Program-made: the position numbers and the translations under genes
In this document: in pieces, positions 17,680-63,374 of the stretch
Layout of the letters: the number at the start of each line of letters is the position of its first letter
Position numbering within the stretch: the stretch's first letter is position 1
Origin: Minisyncoccota bacterium
GTDB lineage: Bacteria > Patescibacteriota > Minisyncoccia > Phycocordibacterales > UBA9973
NCBI GenBank assembly: GCA_041657885.1
Contig: JBBABB010000001.1
Location: forward strand, 198,926 to 262,925
Direction of reading: 5' to 3'
DNA length: 64,000 nucleotides
Notes under the pieces: generated by a model
What the model was told of the DNA's origin: nothing
The model's input: the letters and a program-made list of their open reading frames with translations, nothing else
The model's database searches: none

Positions 17680-19131
17680 ATGACAAAAGAGTATTATACA
17701 ACCATAGGTCTAGAGATTCACGCTGAGTTGAACACCAAATCCAAGATGTTTTGTGGGTGTATTAATAACCCCGATGAGAAAACACCCAATGTAAATATTT
17801 GTCCTGTTTGTATGGCTCATCCGGGAACTCTTCCAGTTATCAATAAAAAGGCCGTAGAGAGTGTAATCAAAGTAGGGCTAGCTCTTGGGGCAAATATAGC
17901 CGACTTTACAGAGTTTGACCGTAAGAATTATTTCTATCCAGATATACCGAAAGCTTATCAGATTACTCAATACAAATTCCCAATTGTCTCTGGGGGAGAA
18001 TTAAGAGGTGTTAAAATTACACGAGTCCACCTTGAAGAAGATACTGCAACATCCAAGCATGATAGAGGCAATTATTCACTCGTTGATTTCAATCGTGTCG
18101 GAGTTCCTCTCATGGAGCTTGTTACCGAACCAGTCATCCATTCTGCAAAGCAAGCAGGGGATTTTGGACGTGAGCTACAACTTCTTTTAAAATATCTCGG
18201 GGTCTCTGAAGCCAACATGGAGAAGGGTGAAATGCGAGTAGAACTTAATATTTCAATATCAGAAGATCCAGTTAAACTAGGCACAAAAGTAGAAGTTAAA
18301 AATATTAATTCTTTCCGAGCAATGGAAAAAGCCGCCGAATACGAAATCAAAAGAATGACCGAATTATTAGAAGCTGGCAAGAGAAATGAGATTGTTCAAG
18401 AAACTCGTGGATGGGATGAAAATAAACAGTCCACATTTTCCCAGCGTACAAAAGAAAATGCAAACGATTACAGATATTTCCCAGACCCAGATTTGCCAAA
18501 ACTATTTTTGAGTAAAGTTTTTGATATTAAAAAAATGAGAAGTGAACTTCCAGAACTTCCAGAAGCACGAAGAAATCGATATAGAAATGATTATGGAATT
18601 AAAGATGAAGATATAGAAAGTTATATAACAGACCAAGAATTAGGAAAATATTTTGAAGAAGTAGCCGAATTTTTTCAAGGTATTTCCTCGCGAAGTGAAA
18701 CGGAGAGAGGTGATTCCTTAGAAAAAATTCGCCTTGCTTCAAATTACATAACATCAGATTATTTAGGACTAAAGAAAATACATTTGGAAGTTCAACTTCC
18801 AAATGTTAAAAATTTTGCTGAATTAATACAAATGGTTAGTGATGGAAAAATCTCTTCTCGTGGAGCTAAAGATATCCTTGCTATGATTGTTATAAAAGAT
18901 GAATCACCAATGAAAATTGCCGAAGAAAAAGGTCTAATCCAGAACCACGACGAAGGAGCACTTAAAGAAATAGTTCAAAAAGTCATAGACGCGAATCCTG
19001 CCGTTGTCGCCACTTATAAAGGAGGCAAAGAAAACGCTCTTATGTCTTTAGTTGGACAAGTTATGAAGGAATCTAAAGGCAGTGCTAACCCTGCTCTTGT
19101 TCAGAAATTATTAAAAGAATTATTGACTTAA
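17680..19131 (+). CDS. gatB: Asp-tRNA(Asn)/Glu-tRNA(Gln) amidotransferase subunit B
   Basis: GLEIHAELNTKSKMFCGC...CPVCMAHPGTLPV GatB signature. Confidence 0.93.
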   Translation: MTKEYYTTIGLEIHAELNTKSKMFCGCINNPDEKTPNVNICPVCMAHPGTLPVINKKAVESVIKVGLALGANIADFTEFDRKNYFYPDIPKAYQITQYKFPIVSGGELRGVKITRVHLEEDTATSKHDRGNYSLVDFNRVGVPLMELVTEPVIHSAKQAGDFGRELQLLLKYLGVSEANMEKGEMRVELNISISEDPVKLGTKVEVKNINSFRAMEKAAEYEIKRMTELLEAGKRNEIVQETRGWDENKQSTFSQRTKENANDYRYFPDPDLPKLFLSKVFDIKKMRSELPELPEARRNRYRNDYGIKDEDIESYITDQELGKYFEEVAEFFQGISSRSETERGDSLEKIRLASNYITSDYLGLKKIHLEVQLPNVKNFAELIQMVSDGKISSRGAKDILAMIVIKDESPMKIAEEKGLIQNHDEGALKEIVQKVIDANPAVVATYKGGKENALMSLVGQVMKESKGSANPALVQKLLKELLT

Positions 19132-19354: not shown

Positions 19355-19391
19355 TCTTCACTAATAATTATATTATTACAACACGAAATTA

Positions 19392-19418
19392 AATTTTAGT
19401 AGTTCAACTACTAAAATT
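19392..19418. repeat. REP palindrome overlapping the last three codons of the RAYT gene
   Basis: AATTTTAGTAGTTCAACTACTAAAATT, 13-bp arms. Confidence 0.7.
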
Positions 19419-20058
19419 CTACCTCTTCTTTCCTCTTTAATGTTTCTTTCCATGAAGACTGAGCAAATTCTAGATAATCTTTTTTATTTTTAAAATTAGA
19501 TAAAACTATTTCTTTATTACACAAACCTTTTACTTCGTCTTTTGTGTATTCTTCTAGGCTTGATTTACTAAATTCTGAAATCAAATTTCCATTTTCATTT
19601 CTATTATTAAAATTTACATAGGCACTTAAATTAAGAAGATAATTATTATCTTCTATTATTTTTGACTTGAATCTCCCTTGAAATAAAACACCGGATCTAT
19701 CATACTTTTCATTAAAATATCTAGTATAGCCACCGACACGTTGCATAAATTTTTCAATACCATTATCAACAAGAGGGGAAAGAATGAGATGAAAATGATT
19801 TTTGTTTATACAATAAGCAACAATGGAGACTAGCGGTTTTTTAGTAGTTGAACTACTAAAATTTAACTTTTTCTTTAAATGTTGTTGAAATATACTTTGA
19901 ATCGGATCAATCACATTAAATTCAACAAGACTTTGCATAAATCTTTTAAGGTCTTCGTTGTCTAAAATAATATTTCTTCTATCCGAACCTCTATTATAAA
20001 TATGATAATATTTTCCTACTTCAAAAATATGATCTCTCATAGGATTATTATACCACAT
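19411..20058 (-). CDS. REP-associated tyrosine transposase (RAYT; IS200-like Y1 HUH, COG1943 family)
   Basis: YHIYNRGSDRRNI, HUH motif NHFHLIL, catalytic region YTRYFNEKYDRSGVLFQGRFKS...NYLLNLSAYVNFN. Confidence 0.85.
   Translation of the reverse strand: MWYNNPMRDHIFEVGKYYHIYNRGSDRRNIILDNEDLKRFMQSLVEFNVIDPIQSIFQQHLKKKLNFSSSTTKKPLVSIVAYCINKNHFHLILSPLVDNGIEKFMQRVGGYTRYFNEKYDRSGVLFQGRFKSKIIEDNNYLLNLSAYVNFNNRNENGNLISEFSKSSLEEYTKDEVKGLCNKEIVLSNFKNKKDYLEFAQSSWKETLKRKEEVEF
19839..19861. repeat. REP palindrome inside the RAYT coding sequence (encodes FSSSTTKK)
   Basis: TTTTAGTAGTTGAACTACTAAAA in frame within the CDS. Confidence 0.7.
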
Positions 20059-20063
20059 TTATA

Positions 20064-20090
20064 AATTTTAGTAGTTGAACTACTAAAATT
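20064..20090. repeat. REP palindrome 6 nt upstream of the RAYT start codon
   Basis: AATTTTAGTAGTTGAACTACTAAAATT. Confidence 0.7.
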
Positions 20091-20128
20091 TTGTAATTTA
20101 TGATAATAAAGTGATATAATAGAAATAT

Positions 20129-21181
20129 ATGGAAAATATAAAAAAAATAAGAGTAGCTATTAATGGTTTTGGGAGAATTGGTCGGGCATTTTTGAAAATT
20201 GCTTGGAAGAGAGATGATATTGAAATAGTCGCGGTGAATGACCTCGGCTCAATTGAAAGCTTAGCGTATTTACTCCGACACGACACTGTTTATCGAGATT
20301 GGGAACATCCCGTGCGAATTGAAGATAATTCTAACGGGACAAGTAAGTTTCTTATAATTGATGAAAAGAAAGTTCAGTTCATTTCAGAAAAAGATACAAC
20401 CAAACTTCCTTGGAAAGATTTAGGTATTGACGTTGTGGTTGAGTCAACTGGTCTCTTCACTTCTTATGATAAAGCAAAATTCCACATTGATTGTGGAGCT
20501 AAAAAAGTTGTAATAAGTGCACCATCAAAAGGTGCTGAAAGCACAGTCCACGGCGAAACTATTCTCTTAGGTATTAATGAAGAAAAATTTGGCTCTTGTG
20601 ATATCACTTCAAATGCTTCTTGTACAACTAATGCAGCAAGTCCACTCATCGCGATTCTCCATGAAGCAATTGGAGTAGAGAAGGCAATTTTAAATACAGT
20701 TCATGGATATACTGCAACTCAAGCTCTTGTTGATGGGCCAAGTAAAAAAGACCTTCGCGAAGGTCGTGCAGCCGCTTGCAACATCGTTCCAAGCTCAACT
20801 GGTGCTGCTATTGCAGTAACTGAAGCTTTTCCAGAGCTTACAGGACTATTTGACGGTATATCTATCCGCGTCCCGGTTCCAGCAGGTTCAATTGTGGATA
20901 TTACATTCATTGCAAAAAGAGATACAACAAAAGAAGAAGTAAATAAAATACTAAAAAAAGCATCCAAAGACCCACACTGGGAAAAACTATTTGCAGTTAC
21001 AGAGGATAATCTTGTGTCCTCGGATATATTAGGCGAAAGTCATGCTTGTATCGCAGACCTAGAAATGACTCGCGTTGTCGGAGGTAATCTCGTAAAAGTC
21101 CTCGGCTGGTACGATAACGAAATGGGGTATACATACACGCTTGTTGACCATGTAGTTAAAACAGGATTAACTATTAAATAA
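20129..21181 (+). CDS. gap: glyceraldehyde-3-phosphate dehydrogenase
   Basis: INGFGRIGR NAD-binding motif, SNASCTTN active-site motif. Confidence 0.93.
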   Translation: MENIKKIRVAINGFGRIGRAFLKIAWKRDDIEIVAVNDLGSIESLAYLLRHDTVYRDWEHPVRIEDNSNGTSKFLIIDEKKVQFISEKDTTKLPWKDLGIDVVVESTGLFTSYDKAKFHIDCGAKKVVISAPSKGAESTVHGETILLGINEEKFGSCDITSNASCTTNAASPLIAILHEAIGVEKAILNTVHGYTATQALVDGPSKKDLREGRAAACNIVPSSTGAAIAVTEAFPELTGLFDGISIRVPVPAGSIVDITFIAKRDTTKEEVNKILKKASKDPHWEKLFAVTEDNLVSSDILGESHACIADLEMTRVVGGNLVKVLGWYDNEMGYTYTLVDHVVKTGLTIK

Positions 21182-21995
21182 TTTTTCCTTTAAATACAAA
21201 AGTAGTAGGGCCACGTAATATTATGTGGCCTTGCTCGTTTTGTGATAGATAAAGTTTTCCACCTGGGAATTCTAAAGTTATTTCTCTGTCAATTACATAG
21301 GACGGTCCTATGTAATCTTTTATAAGAATGGCAAAAACTGCACAAGCGCCGGTGCCACAAGCAAGCGTCTCCCCACAGCCACGTTCCCAGACTTTGACTT
21401 TGTAGTAGTCATCTTTTATTTTTTCAACAAATTCCATATTTATTTTATTGGGGAAGTGCGGATCGTTTTCTATTTTAGGCCCAATTGATTTTATATCTAT
21501 TTTATCTAAATTATCAACCATTGTTACTGTATGCGGATTCCCCATAGATATACAATCAAAAGTAAAACCTTCTAGATTGATGGATTCGCTTGGGAAATCA
21601 CAGCTTTCAAAAATTGGTGTTCCCATATTTACGGAGAAGGTGCCATCAGCATTTACTTTGATGTTTTTGATTCCAGCTCGAGTATCTATATTTAATTCTT
21701 TTAAATTAGAATCCTGCTCGCCGGTGAGGAGGGTTGTTTGCTCTAAAAAGAATTTGGCAGTACACCTTGCTCCATTCCCACACATTTCGGCTTCTGTCCC
21801 ATCGGAATTATAATAATTCATAAAACAATCTGCTTTGTTTGATGATTCGAGTAATATTACTCCATCTGCTCCAATACCAAAATGCCTATCACAAATGAAT
21901 TTAATATAATCGGGGGTAAATTTAATTTCACCCTTTAAATTATTTATCATTATAAAGTCATTACCTGCACCGTGATATTTGTGAAATTCAGTCAT
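21174..21995 (-). CDS. dapF: diaminopimelate epimerase
   Basis: GAGNDFI, CGNGARC and ACGTGACA motifs. Confidence 0.9.
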   Translation of the reverse strand: MTEFHKYHGAGNDFIMINNLKGEIKFTPDYIKFICDRHFGIGADGVILLESSNKADCFMNYYNSDGTEAEMCGNGARCTAKFFLEQTTLLTGEQDSNLKELNIDTRAGIKNIKVNADGTFSVNMGTPIFESCDFPSESINLEGFTFDCISMGNPHTVTMVDNLDKIDIKSIGPKIENDPHFPNKINMEFVEKIKDDYYKVKVWERGCGETLACGTGACAVFAILIKDYIGPSYVIDREITLEFPGGKLYLSQNEQGHIILRGPTTFVFKGKII

Positions 21996-22637: not shown

Positions 22638-23324
22638 ATGACAGAAATAACCCCCGCAATACTTGTAAAAGATTTTAATGAACTAAACGAAAAATTGGCT
22701 AAATTTGTCAATATAACAAAAATGGTGCAAATAGATATTTGCGATGGTAAATTTGTGCCGTCCACTTCTTGGCCAATGCATCAAAGCGATAAAGAAAGTG
22801 TAGAGAGAATTTTGGATGAAGAAGAAGGAATGCCTTTTTGGGATAGCTTAGATTTTGAATTTGACCTGATGGTAATGAACGCTCACAAGCGGTTTGATTT
22901 CTTTGCTCGTCTTGGAACCAAAAAAATTATTTTTCATATAGAAGCTGAAGAAGAAAATAGTTTTAAGGAATTTCTAGAATCACTAGACCCATATTTTAAA
23001 GATAATGTTGATATTGGAATTGCTATCAATACGACGACAGATATAGAAAAACTGGAACCATTTATAAATCATGTAGATTTTGTGCAGTGTATGGGAATAG
23101 AGAATGTTGGATTTCAGGGCGAACCATTTGACGAGAGAGTGTTAAAACAAATTAAAGATTTAAGATTAAAGTATCCGGAATTAAAAATAAGTGTAGATGG
23201 AGCTGTAGATGAAAATACCGCACCACTTCTACTTAAAGCCGGTGCAAATAGATTAGTAATGGGTTCAACGTTACTTCAGAGTTATGACATAAGAGAAACA
23301 ATTAAAGAGTTTGAAAGTTTATAA
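22638..23324 (+). CDS. rpe: ribulose-phosphate 3-epimerase-like
   Basis: ITPAILVKDFNEL...QIDICDGKFVP...VDGAVDENT TIM-barrel Rpe pattern. Confidence 0.75.
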   Translation: MTEITPAILVKDFNELNEKLAKFVNITKMVQIDICDGKFVPSTSWPMHQSDKESVERILDEEEGMPFWDSLDFEFDLMVMNAHKRFDFFARLGTKKIIFHIEAEEENSFKEFLESLDPYFKDNVDIGIAINTTTDIEKLEPFINHVDFVQCMGIENVGFQGEPFDERVLKQIKDLRLKYPELKISVDGAVDENTAPLLLKAGANRLVMGSTLLQSYDIRETIKEFESL

Positions 23325-23354
23325 TTATTTATTATTTTGTTACAATAAAAGAAG

Positions 23355-24191
23355 ATGGAAACATTGACTGATGAAAAAATTAAAGAATTAAAATTAACTG
23401 CAAATAACATTCGCAAGAGTATTATAGAGATGCTATATGAAGCAGGAAGTGGTCACACGGGAGGTGCGCTTGGAATGGCAGATATTTTTACATTGCTTTA
23501 TTTTCACACATTAAAACACGACCCAAAGAATCCTCTTTGGGCTAATCGTGATCGGCTCGTCCTTTCAAATGGTCATATTTGTCCCGTGCTGTATGCAACC
23601 ATGGCCGAAGCCGGATACTTTCCTAAAGAAGAACTCAAAACTTTGCGTAAATTTGGCACGCGTTTACAAGGTCATCCACATCGTGAATATATGCCTTGGC
23701 TTGAAACCTCTTCTGGTCCACTAGGTGAAGGTTTTTCACAAGCAGTTGGTATGGCAATCGTTGAAAAAATTTATGGTGAGACAAAAAATATTTATGCAAT
23801 ATTATCTGATGGGGAACACGATGAGGGGAATACATGGGAGGCAATAATGCTCGCTGGTAAAGAAAAACTTTCTAAATTAATAGTTATTGTTGATAGAAAT
23901 CATATTCAAATTAGTGGAAACACTGAACGAGTTATGCCACTTGGTAATTTAAAAGAAAAATATAAAACATTTGGTTGGAATACTTTTGAGGTAAATGGGC
24001 ACGATTTTTGGGAAGTTAACAATGCTATTTATTTAGCTCATAGAAATAAAATCTCTCCTTCAGTAATAATCGCAAATACTATCCCCGGAAAAGGAGTTAA
24101 AGAATGGGAAAATGATTATCATTGGCATGGAAAAGCACCAAATAAAGAAGAAGCCGAAATGGCACTTGGGGAACTAGATGGTAGGTTATAG
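23355..24191 (+). CDS. transketolase, N-terminal subunit (split form)
   Basis: GSGHTGGALGMADIF...GHPH...SSGPLGEGFSQAVGMA TPP-binding motifs. Confidence 0.88.
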   Translation: METLTDEKIKELKLTANNIRKSIIEMLYEAGSGHTGGALGMADIFTLLYFHTLKHDPKNPLWANRDRLVLSNGHICPVLYATMAEAGYFPKEELKTLRKFGTRLQGHPHREYMPWLETSSGPLGEGFSQAVGMAIVEKIYGETKNIYAILSDGEHDEGNTWEAIMLAGKEKLSKLIVIVDRNHIQISGNTERVMPLGNLKEKYKTFGWNTFEVNGHDFWEVNNAIYLAHRNKISPSVIIANTIPGKGVKEWENDYHWHGKAPNKEEAEMALGELDGRL

Positions 24192-38410: not shown

Positions 38411-38936
38411 ATGGCAAGTACCAAAGAAATTAAAAAGAAAAATATCACACTATTTGAAGGAAATAAAGTCCGTCGTGTTTGGCATGAGGACAAGTGGTTT
38501 TTTGTTGTTGAAGATGTAGTTTTTGCCCTTATTGAATCAAAAAATATAAAGGATTATATTAATAAACTTAGACAACGAGATCCGGAATTAAGCAAAGGGT
38601 ATGGACAAATTGTCCATACCCTTGACGTGCAAACAAAAGGTGGTATTCAATCAATGAATTGTGCTGACCTAGAAGGTATTTTCCGTATTATACAATCAAT
38701 TCCATCGCCAAAAGCTGAACCATATGGGAGATATTGAGCTCATACTTACAATGCTTGCCGAAGCAACGACAACTAAACTTTCAGTAGACCGTGATTCAAA
38801 AGGTTTTAATAAATTAAAAAATGATGCAAAAGAAGGAGGGGAAATAGTTGGGGAAACACGCAAAAAGATAGAGAATCGTTCTGGTAAGAAAATTTCAACA
38901 AATAAGAATTTTTTGAATATTAAAAATAAAAAATGA
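38411..38936 (+). pseudogene. Bro-N domain / DinD-like (phage antirepressor-like) gene split by a frameshift (ORFs 38411-38737 and 38724-38936)
   Basis: N-terminal ITLFEGNKVRRVWHEDKWFFVVEDVVFAL is Bro-N-like; homology continues in another frame upstream of the second ORF (..RQKLNHMGDIELILTML..); starts with MASTKEIKK, duplicating the atpG start. Confidence 0.45.
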
Positions 38937-38966: not shown

Positions 38967-39881
38967 ATGGCATCAACCAAAGAAATTAAAAGAAGAATAA
39001 AGTCGGTGAAGAGCACAAAGAAAATCACGAAAGCGATGGAGCTTGTTTCTGCGTCAAAAATGAAGCGTGCTATATCTAAAACTTTAGCCTCTCGTCTTTA
39101 TTCATCTTATTCTTGGGAACTTTTGACTTCTATTTCTAGACGATTAGAAGAAACAACAAATAAATTCTTCGTAGAAAATGCTAATAAAGAAAAATCTTTG
39201 ATCGTCCTTATCACTTCCAATCGCGGTCTTTGCGGAGGATACAATTCACAAGTGATAAAGAAAACCATTGCCAAAATAAAGGAAGAAGTTTCCCCTAGGC
39301 AAGGCCTAGGGGAAAAAGTGGATATTGTTACTGTCGGCAAAAAGGGCGACAGCGCAATGCGCAGAACAGGCCAAACAGTTGTCGCAACATTCACAGATAT
39401 GCCCGACAATATAACACTTCGAGATATTATTCCTCTTTCAACTTATCTTACAAATGAGTTTAAAGATGAGAAATATGGAAAAGTTTACATTGCATATACT
39501 GATTTCGTTTCTGCCTTAACCCAAAAGCCAAAAATTAGAAAAATTTTACCAGTATCTAAAGAGGAAGTTAGAGAATCAATAGAAGAATCCGCCTCCGCTC
39601 CAAGCTCCGGCGTGACGAAGGAAATCCCATACTTGTTTGAAGGGGATACAGAACAATTACTCGGAATGCTGGCAGAAAAATTGGTTCGAATGCAAATATA
39701 TCAGATGGTCCTCGAATCAAATGCCTCGGAACAATCTTCCCGTATGGTTGCAATGAAAAATGCGTCGGAAGCCGCCGGAGAAATGATAGATGACCTAACT
39801 CTCGTATTTAACAAAGCTCGCCAAGCAGGAATCACAAGAGAAATATCAGAAATTAGCGCGGGGATGGCAAGTGTGAATTGA
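38967..39881 (+). CDS. atpG: ATP synthase F1 subunit gamma
   Basis: MASTKEIKRRIKSVKSTKKITKAMELVSASKM N-terminus and conserved C-terminal helix. Confidence 0.9.
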   Translation: MASTKEIKRRIKSVKSTKKITKAMELVSASKMKRAISKTLASRLYSSYSWELLTSISRRLEETTNKFFVENANKEKSLIVLITSNRGLCGGYNSQVIKKTIAKIKEEVSPRQGLGEKVDIVTVGKKGDSAMRRTGQTVVATFTDMPDNITLRDIIPLSTYLTNEFKDEKYGKVYIAYTDFVSALTQKPKIRKILPVSKEEVRESIEESASAPSSGVTKEIPYLFEGDTEQLLGMLAEKLVRMQIYQMVLESNASEQSSRMVAMKNASEAAGEMIDDLTLVFNKARQAGITREISEISAGMASVN

Positions 39882-41378
<1,497 letters not shown>

Positions 41379-41383
41379 TTAAT

Positions 41384-41474
41384 TTCTCCCCTCCTTACCA
41401 AGGAGGGGAATGAGGGGAGGTTCTTAATTAATTAGGAACCCCTCCCCAGCCCTCCCCTTGGTAAGGGGAGGGGG
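41384..41474. repeat. G+C-rich triple-hairpin element (copy B) between atpD and atpC
   Basis: differs from copy A at only a few positions. Confidence 0.65.
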
Positions 41475-43079: not shown

Positions 43080-43856
43080 GTGAATAAGAACCCTAAGGCA
43101 AAACTAAATGATCTATTAAAAGATTTAAAACAAAAAGAAAACAAAGAGAAAGCGAAAATTTTGGCTGGGTTTTTCAAAACAGGCCCTGGTCAATATGGTG
43201 AAGGGGATTTATTTCTGGGGATAACTGTCCCCGAATCTCGCAAACTCGCTTTGAGGTATTCAGAGCTTCCACTTTCAGATATATCCAAACTTATCAAAAA
43301 CAAATACCACGAAGCCCGACTCGTCGCCCTCCTAATCCTCGTCCATAAATACAAAGTTGCCTCTACTTTGCATAGGTCTGACCTATGCAAAACTATTGCT
43401 GATTTTTATTTGAAACACACTAAATATATTAACAATTGGGATTTAGTAGACCTTTCAGCTCATTATATTGTTGGGGATTATTTATACTCCCACCACCTCG
43501 CCCAACGGGCACTCCTCCTCAGGCAGGAGGAGACTAAATACAGGACGGTCCTATATGGTTTGGCAAAATCGAAGAACCTTTGGGAACGCCGAATCGCTAT
43601 TATTTCTACATTTGCATTTATATACAAAGGGGAACCAGAGTGGACTTTCCACTTAGTCAAAATGCTCTTAAATGACTCACATGACCTTATCCATAAGACC
43701 TGCGGTTGGATGCTTCGCGAAGTAGGGAAACGTGTGTCAGAAAAAGAATTGACAACTTTCCTAGATATCCACAATACTCAAATGCCTCGCACAATGCTCC
43801 GCTATGCTATTGAACGACTCCCCAAAAATAAAAGGTTTTATTATCTAAATAAATAA
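43080..43856 (+). CDS. DNA alkylation repair protein (AlkD-like HEAT-repeat glycosylase family)
   Basis: ...WDLVDLSAHYIVGDY...KTCGWMLREVGKR... matches the DNA_alkylation family pattern. Confidence 0.75.
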   Translation: MNKNPKAKLNDLLKDLKQKENKEKAKILAGFFKTGPGQYGEGDLFLGITVPESRKLALRYSELPLSDISKLIKNKYHEARLVALLILVHKYKVASTLHRSDLCKTIADFYLKHTKYINNWDLVDLSAHYIVGDYLYSHHLAQRALLLRQEETKYRTVLYGLAKSKNLWERRIAIISTFAFIYKGEPEWTFHLVKMLLNDSHDLIHKTCGWMLREVGKRVSEKELTTFLDIHNTQMPRTMLRYAIERLPKNKRFYYLNK

Positions 43857-50158: not shown

Positions 50159-50200
50159 AGATAGAGCCTTAGACTCTATCTAGAGTCTAAGGCTCTATCT
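50159..50200. terminator. 42-nt perfect palindrome between convergent genes (bidirectional terminator or binding site)
   Basis: AGATAGAGCCTTAGACTCTA-tc-TAGAGTCTAAGGCTCTATCT, 20-bp arms. Confidence 0.6.
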
Positions 50201-63135: not shown

Positions 63136-63374
63136 GTGAAAGCGCAGTGATATTTTGTGAACACACAAAATTATGAGCTGAGGTCGCGAGTACTTACGTA
63201 AAATTTGAGTTTACAAAAAATTTTACTTAGTAACTCGTGATCACAACTATATATAAATGCGAAGCATACAATTTATAGTTTGTAGATAGGGGCTTAGCCC
63301 CTATCTACAGTCAACTAAACAAAAAGTCTCAACCTTATTGGGCTGAGACTAGTGTTATTTTATCTGACAGAGGA

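Follow-up and report, generated by a model that had tools for sequence, protein, structure and literature searches.

An in-frame copy of the gene-flanking palindrome within a RAYT-like transposase gene of a Patescibacteria genome

Why should the gene of a REP-type transposase carry, inside its own reading frame, the very palindrome that flanks it? The question is raised by the 64,000-nucleotide stretch of Minisyncoccota DNA analyzed here (the window), in which the 23-nucleotide sequence TTTTAGTAGTTGAACTACTAAAA lies at positions 19839–19861 of the plus strand. RAYTs flanked by REPs are already known (PMC2817692, PMC5581495), as are in-frame palindromic repeats within genes (PMC3184786); term searches of the main RAYT papers and of the wider literature covered yielded no earlier description of a REP lying within a RAYT gene. 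The preliminary description of the locus regarded the internal sequence as a third copy of the enzyme's own substrate, and proposed that it could serve as a regulatory hairpin or a recombination site, or that it is a past REP insertion tolerated in a linker.

The internal sequence is a perfect palindrome (11+1+11) and, as single-stranded DNA, is predicted to fold with −6.9 kcal/mol (z = −3.3). On the gene strand it reads as the codons TTT AGT AGT TCA ACT ACT AAA, encoding F67-S-S-S-T-T-K73, so that the presence of a REP-like palindrome in frame within a RAYT-type ORF (19411–20058, minus strand) is confirmed. Searching the window with up to three mismatches yields four copies, starting at 1637, 19394, 19839, and 20066, against an expectation of zero from 100 dinucleotide-preserving shuffles. 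The internal copy, designated site S1, is identical on the gene strand to the upstream copy (23/23) and differs from the downstream copy in the central base only (G vs. C). The features of the locus are the following.

19411–20058, minus strand: ORF of the RAYT-like Y1/HUH transposase, 215 aa.
19839–19861, minus strand: internal in-frame copy, site S1 (F67-S-S-S-T-T-K73), centered on codon position 2.
19573–19593, minus strand: second internal slot, S2, probably decayed (N156-G-N-L-I-S-E162).
20063–20091, no strand assigned: upstream copy, a 29-nt palindrome (core 20066–20088) located where the −35 of the predicted RAYT promoter would fall.
20047–20055, minus strand: putative extended −10 box TGGTATAAT, assigned from the sequence and a family-wide pattern.
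19392–19418, no strand assigned: downstream copy, a 27-nt palindrome (core 19394–19416) over the stop codon.
1627–1669, no strand assigned: dispersed copy (core 1637–1659), intergenic between two convergent ORFs.

The downstream copy is read in a different frame from S1 and encodes the last codon, F215, together with the TAG stop (19411–19413). The arms 19391–19418 and 20064–20091 are 28 nt long and 100% complementary. The dispersed copy, a variant with the loop TCGGA, is lengthened to a hairpin of 43 nt (−16.1 kcal/mol). The same arrangement of palindromes is present in independent assemblies (L001–L003 and L156) and is therefore not an assembly artefact. Similarity between S1 and the downstream copy extends past the palindrome (38 nt, 87%), and was set aside as AT-rich, Lys-rich low complexity.

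The enzyme itself is a Y1 transposase, passing the Pfam Y1_Tnp model (PF01797; 35.8 bits, cut-off 23). It does not reach the NCBIfam RAYT equivalog NF047646 (21.6 bits, cut-off 80), and belongs to a divergent subfamily relative to that equivalog. The HUH motif is H88-F-H90, and H88, H90, Y140, and Y147 are invariant in 37 aligned homologous proteins of 52–94% identity; several homologs are named ‘REP element-mobilizing transposase RayT’ by JGI. The AlphaFold model (pLDDT 82.7) finds its closest Foldseek match in 4er8_A, E. coli RayT with a REP hairpin, followed by the IS608 and ISDra2 TnpA proteins. The homologs begin at the equivalent of M7, which makes the ATG at 20040 the probable start, for a protein of 209 aa. 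In the model, S1 is predicted to lie in a disordered loop, between helix 56–65 and the strand preceding the HUH strand, with residues 67–71 at pLDDT < 50. The proposed placement of a flanking-palindrome copy in a linker is thus upheld, both by this loop and by the identical copies at the flanks.

The Y1 gene is single in the window; a second apparent Y1 homolog at 23123–23428 was discarded as spurious, being inside two plus-strand genes (ribulose-phosphate epimerase and transketolase, by ORF translation). About 10 genomes share the order gatB–RAYT–gap, and this synteny still holds at 53% RAYT identity, with the palindrome switching type at every copy. Second copies within one locus are paralogs just 28–39% identical. 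On synteny and identity, the gene is a single-copy, vertically inherited, domesticated transposase, and does not fit an autonomous IS200/IS605 insertion sequence, which would be present as several near-identical copies at non-syntenic sites.

Comparison with 80 Patescibacteria MAG loci (45–90% identity; 81 with the window) shows that S1 is a property of the family. A segment is found at this position in most homologs, and the site is filled in every homolog of 77–100% identity, with no empty allele among these close orthologs. The segment does not stand out as an insertion when compared with homologs, and a recent insertion is rejected, as the site is occupied across the family in the homolog alignment. 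Approximately 90 codons downstream of S1, many homologs carry the same palindrome at S2, and most loci have four sites: upstream, S1, S2, and downstream. Their centers lie at a median of −28 from the ATG (upstream), about +190 (S1), about +457 (S2), and a median of 14 nt past the stop codon (downstream); in the window the upstream center is about 37 nt 5′ of the M7 ATG. Over the 81 loci the sites number 73 upstream, 58 S1, 39 S2, and 63 downstream, with five of the S1 and S2 calls being spurious AT-rich palindromes. About 30% of loci have no S1, about 55% have no S2, and about 10% have neither. No significant sign of selection to keep at least one internal site was found: some 9–12 loci lack both where about 14 are expected under independence, a comparison confounded by phylogeny. 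In the alignment, the S2 slot of the window has the same length, seven codons, as the L-G-x-x-x-x-K palindromes of homologs and retains just a 5-bp remnant (GAAAT/ATTTC), and was probably once a palindrome.

All 92 of 92 internal copies share one reading frame, with the center on codon position 2, a frame in which either orientation of the palindrome reads alike. Relative orientation of the copies is not conserved in the 81 loci. In the window type, S1 has TTCAA where the downstream copy has TTGAA, because a flipped core would place a TGA stop in frame; the same constraint accounts in part for the lack of a conserved orientation. Two distant paralogs (28–34% identity) have their internal copy at a third position, just past the HUH strand, and it matches their own flanks. 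Two regions (L016, 19960–20421; L033, 4662–5261) encode a divergent RAYT subfamily of the GAWVLMPNHFH type, 232–233 aa long, with the palindrome at this third position.

The S1 peptides vary widely among homologs (SSSTT, SSPTT, GSPTT, GTRST, GGPTS, GHPMS, and SAPRA), and the DNA of every variant is a palindrome, of the form CTT GGN NNN (loop) NNN NCC AAG. Each homolog's peptide is its own genome's flanking palindrome in translation; a coincidental match to a peptide conserved in REP-free homologs, which the preliminary description had named as grounds for refutation, is absent. Internal 19-mer cores are identical to their own flank in 66 of 95 cases and within two differences in 83 of 95, while only 6.6% come within two differences of the flanks of other loci. 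Where one gene has both S1 and S2, the two agree exactly in 13 of 25 cases. Across 83 in-frame palindromes, 95.1% of cells are paired, compared with 76.9% on shuffling and 24–49% with the partner slid; the set comprises the best palindrome per region, which inflates the paired fraction and leaves the stem variety unaffected. Nine of 10 stem pairs change on both sides, and compensatory cells number 153 compared with 38 in shuffles, none of 500 shuffles being as high.

The same stem at all copies of a locus, combined with compensatory divergence between genomes, means that the copies evolve in concert and that the constraint is on the nucleic acid, symmetrically between strands, rather than on the peptide. 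The more distant two proteins are, the more distant their palindromes tend to be (rho = 0.42); when palindrome types were clustered by single linkage, most of them chained together. In genomes with two paralogs, each paralog has a separate palindrome. A few loci have an internal palindrome of a type unlike their own flanks (S2 vs. S1 and flanks in L044 and L036; S1 vs. flanks in L075). These mismatched types match another system, suggestive of cross-overwriting between palindrome families.

The upstream copy has a further property, its fusion to a predicted promoter. The last base of TGGTATAAT lies six bases before the A of the M7 ATG. Across the family, a −10-like hexamer separates the upstream palindrome from the ATG in 58 of 73 loci, and a TGn-extended −10 box follows the palindrome in 48 of 73 (control windows, 2 of 78). 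The modal distance from palindrome center to −10 box is 14 nt, such that the last T of the palindrome supplies the T of TGnTATAAT. The box ends 6–7 nt before the ATG in 38 loci, and the survey of promoter regions found no Shine–Dalgarno motif at the RAYT start; together these suggest a leaderless mRNA. The position of the palindrome over the spacer and −35 zone suggests that of an operator. The upstream copy also adjoins the −35 of the divergent gap promoter. This promoter-like site (20091–20120, plus strand; TTGTAA-18-TATAAT with TG) lies upstream of gap (20129–21181) and ends 8 nt before its ATG. Transcripts that begin at the start codon, or very close to it, may therefore be widespread in this genome.

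We tentatively favor the explanation that this single-copy, vertically inherited RAYT-like Y1 transposase has the palindrome as its cognate DNA hairpin, that the copies are held identical through the enzyme or through local gene conversion, and that the hairpin probably acts in autoregulation. The gene would then form a cassette in which one palindrome is repeated up to four times: one copy fused to the extended −10 promoter, one at the stop codon, and one or two translated in predicted disordered loops (S1 and S2), with a third site used in a divergent subfamily. The enzyme would bind, and possibly cut and rejoin, these hairpins on single-stranded DNA, and either its activity or gene conversion between copies about 200 bp apart would maintain their identity. 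The upstream copy, over the spacer and −35 region, would be the operator, and the internal copy would assist it in cis, so that the enzyme limits its own expression by occupying its own gene; the peptide FSSSTTK would be a tolerated by-product. The palindrome is in this sense a putative substrate of the enzyme, and in contrast to the classical high-copy REP, the repeat is low-copy here.

Several observations stand against this explanation. In-frame palindromes also occur in housekeeping genes, so no special function has to be assumed for a palindrome merely because it is translated. The RAYT-type palindrome is found in frame in related genomes in Obg (L139, L109, L083, and L160), IleS (L098, L095, L146, and L009), LigA (L133), TsaD (L113), IscS (L153 and L101), and a HolA-like protein. 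RsmH (L145) and PurH (L082) have in-frame doublets of the palindrome, and MurC (L106 and L107) has the palindrome in another reading frame. At one position in IleS, some genomes have the window-type palindrome and L009 an other-type doublet. On a 361,958-nt contig that also encodes this transposase, Obg contains the exact 23-mer, and close relatives with 79–100% Obg identity have alleles of three kinds: empty at 322 aa, filled at 327 aa, and decayed. Among 150 diverse representatives of Obg, the site is without an insert throughout. Judging by these alleles, the copy in Obg arose as a lineage-specific insertion and is subject to decay, whereas S1 and S2 persist and track the local palindrome type. 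The gatB and dapF genes of the window have in-frame palindromes of other sequences, and the sites concerned differ from one relative to another.

It is almost as likely that the internal copy is a neutral passenger, inserted by a transposase that acts mostly near its own gene and enters permissive loops, with frequent conversion from the flanks alone maintaining identity and no effect on expression. The carriage of in-frame copies by Obg, IleS, LigA, TsaD, IscS, MurC, gatB, and dapF, the three allelic states of Obg in close relatives, the frequent loss of S1 or S2, the unconserved orientation, and the predicted disorder of the loop are all as this explanation would have it. The losses and the orientation weigh against an autoregulatory role, as does the weakness of the AT-rich hairpin of the window (−6.9 kcal/mol), and a cis-preferring transposase with conversion from flanks 200 bp away could, without selection, mimic both the enrichment and the identity. 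Against mere passage, S1 and S2 are still found at 45% protein identity and track the local type, while the Obg insert is absent from the 150 representatives; three different positions are occupied in divergent subfamilies; and the upstream copy is precisely fused to the predicted promoter, which would couple palindrome and expression. Copy density also speaks against it. The palindrome is low-copy at about 0.03 per kb (one dispersed copy in the 64-kb window, 28–32 in about 1 Mb of related loci, many dispersed copies being intragenic), and is approximately 50–90 times denser per kb in the transposase coding sequence than in the surrounding DNA. A metagenome scan for the palindrome gave mostly single matches in other contigs.

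A number of further palindromes were observed alongside these. Those in housekeeping genes are sometimes back-to-back doublets, for example LEVEPPLGGSTSK. A second recurring in-frame insert, DPEGK[SG]TS[NY][GW]A[GS]N, is present in IleS of L098, Obg of L109, and one Obg homolog, and its occurrence in different genes may indicate another mobile in-frame element. In the window, gatB (17680–19131, plus strand) contains the perfect in-frame palindrome ACATTTGGAAGTTCAACTTCCAAATGT at 18780–18806 (peptide H-L-E-V-Q-L-P-N-V), and two compensatory pairs set it apart from the RAYT palindrome. The corresponding slot is of equal length and non-palindromic in the close relatives L001, L002, and L004, and holds partial palindromes of their own type in L030 and L021. 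The in-frame palindrome TACATAGGACCGTCCTATGTA of dapF (21174–21995, minus strand) lies at 21292–21316, encodes Y-I-G-P-S-Y-V with its center on codon position 2, and adds 5 aa relative to L001 and L005; in L003 the slot holds a different palindrome, CCCCAAGCAAGGCTTGGGG, and a core resembling that of dapF recurs in the window at 43367–43391. The GC-rich palindromes TCCCCTCCTTACCAAGGAGGGGA and CCCTCCCCTTAGTAAGGGGAGGG form a pair recurring at 39887–39972 and 41387–41472, exactly 1500 nt apart, each pair directly preceding an ORF start and conspicuous in this AT-rich genome. Long perfect palindromes of other families (50159–50200, 63281–63309, 38595–38623, and 39289–39315) have stems of 11–18 bp, some of them inside ORFs.

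A more elaborate version of the favored explanation, which we consider rather unlikely as it stands, is that the RAYT-like enzyme rewrites hairpins in place between conserved feet, keeping all copies at the current master sequence and using the same sites to sense and limit its own expression. Such rewriting would cover the promoter, coding-sequence, and stop-codon copies and, to a lesser extent, the copies in other genes.

The remaining explanations are less well supported than autoregulation or neutral passage. It is improbable that the palindromes act at the RNA level, independently of the transposase, through ribosome pausing, RNase processing, or stability in a leaderless mRNA, with the downstream copy as a 3′ stabilizer or terminator. 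If transcription begins at the ATG, S1, S2, and the downstream copy would indeed all be transcribed, and a median center 14 nt past the stop codon suits a 3′ element. The internal sites lack an RNA wobble signature, with 11 G:T and 13 A:C mismatches and hence no sense-strand excess of G:U-compatible changes. The scan for intrinsic terminators found no site, the Rfam search matched no family, and an RNA function gives no reason for the internal hairpin to equal the untranscribed promoter copy.

Slightly less probable again is a role in recombination or mobility, in which the internal copies would be extra cleavage and joining sites for excision, inversion, or exchange, as are the ends of IS200/IS605 elements. 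The cassette is IS200-sized with a hairpin at each end, and some internal palindromes are of another system's type (L044 S2 and L075 S1, for instance). The gene is however single-copy and syntenic, none of the 80 loci contains a cassette that has been rearranged or truncated so as to end at either internal site, and excision there would destroy the gene. Finally, selection for an FSSSTTK-like peptide from which the palindrome follows by codon choice, or plain coincidence, is rejected as very improbable: a segment of similar length does occupy this position in most homologs, but the peptides vary freely, always from palindromes with complementary codon pairs that covary and match non-coding flanks, and the chance expectation in the window is zero. 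The choice among the roles first proposed (regulatory site, recombination site, or tolerated passenger) is narrowed by these results.

One of the closest known parallels is E. coli TnpAREP (RayT/YafM) with its REP/BIME elements, also a single-copy Y1/HUH enzyme flanked by cognate palindromes. The REPs of E. coli rayT are high-copy and lie only outside the coding sequence, with no internal REP, whereas here the low-copy palindrome is also in frame inside the gene, fused to the predicted promoter, and placed over the stop codon. As in the Pseudomonas REPIN–RAYT systems (PMC3116915, PMC5581495), inheritance is vertical, each RAYT paralog has a palindrome family to itself, and enzyme and repeat diverge together. 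Bertels and Rainey describe those REPINs as extragenic doublets with tens to hundreds of copies per genome, and term searches of their papers turned up no intragenic copy in the RAYT gene.

The cassette also resembles IS200 (IS200/IS605 family TnpA), a unit of about 700 bp in which terminal hairpins enclose a Y1 transposase. Mobile and multi-copy, IS200 has differing left and right ends, in contrast to the single-copy, syntenic locus described here, which has identical perfect palindromes that also lie in the ORF. In IS200 the left-end hairpins restrain tnpA expression. Rickettsia palindromic elements are likewise palindromic repeats translated within proteins of the host, relatives having either the filled or the empty allele, and Ogata is said to have reported them in 2000 as inserted in frame in genes. 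In-frame read-through of this kind holds for RAYT S1 and S2 and for Obg, IleS, LigA, TsaD, IscS, gatB, and dapF. The Rickettsia elements are about 100–150 bp long; the present ones are hairpins of 21–29 nt, tied to a RAYT-like gene and following the local repeat type. By analogy, the internal copy may be likened to lac O2, the auxiliary operator in lacZ, in that a site near the promoter is repeated a few hundred bp downstream, within coding sequence. LacI binds and loops double-stranded DNA, whereas single-stranded hairpins are the expected target of a Y1 enzyme.

The locus bears on the cellular role of RAYTs, the homogeneity of REP families, and the manner in which the enzyme is restrained. 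Here a cognate hairpin is found in three readable contexts, fused to a putative −10 box, translated within the gene, and over its stop codon, and the joint change of all copies across about 80 genomes makes both autoregulation and hairpin replacement readily testable. Short REP-like hairpins are also being written into the protein loops of housekeeping genes in the streamlined genomes of Patescibacteria. It is tempting to speculate that, if rewriting in place does occur, the enzyme would be part of a feedback loop that targets itself, and repeats would have a new way of evolving in concert, one that also remodels protein loops in the Patescibacteria.
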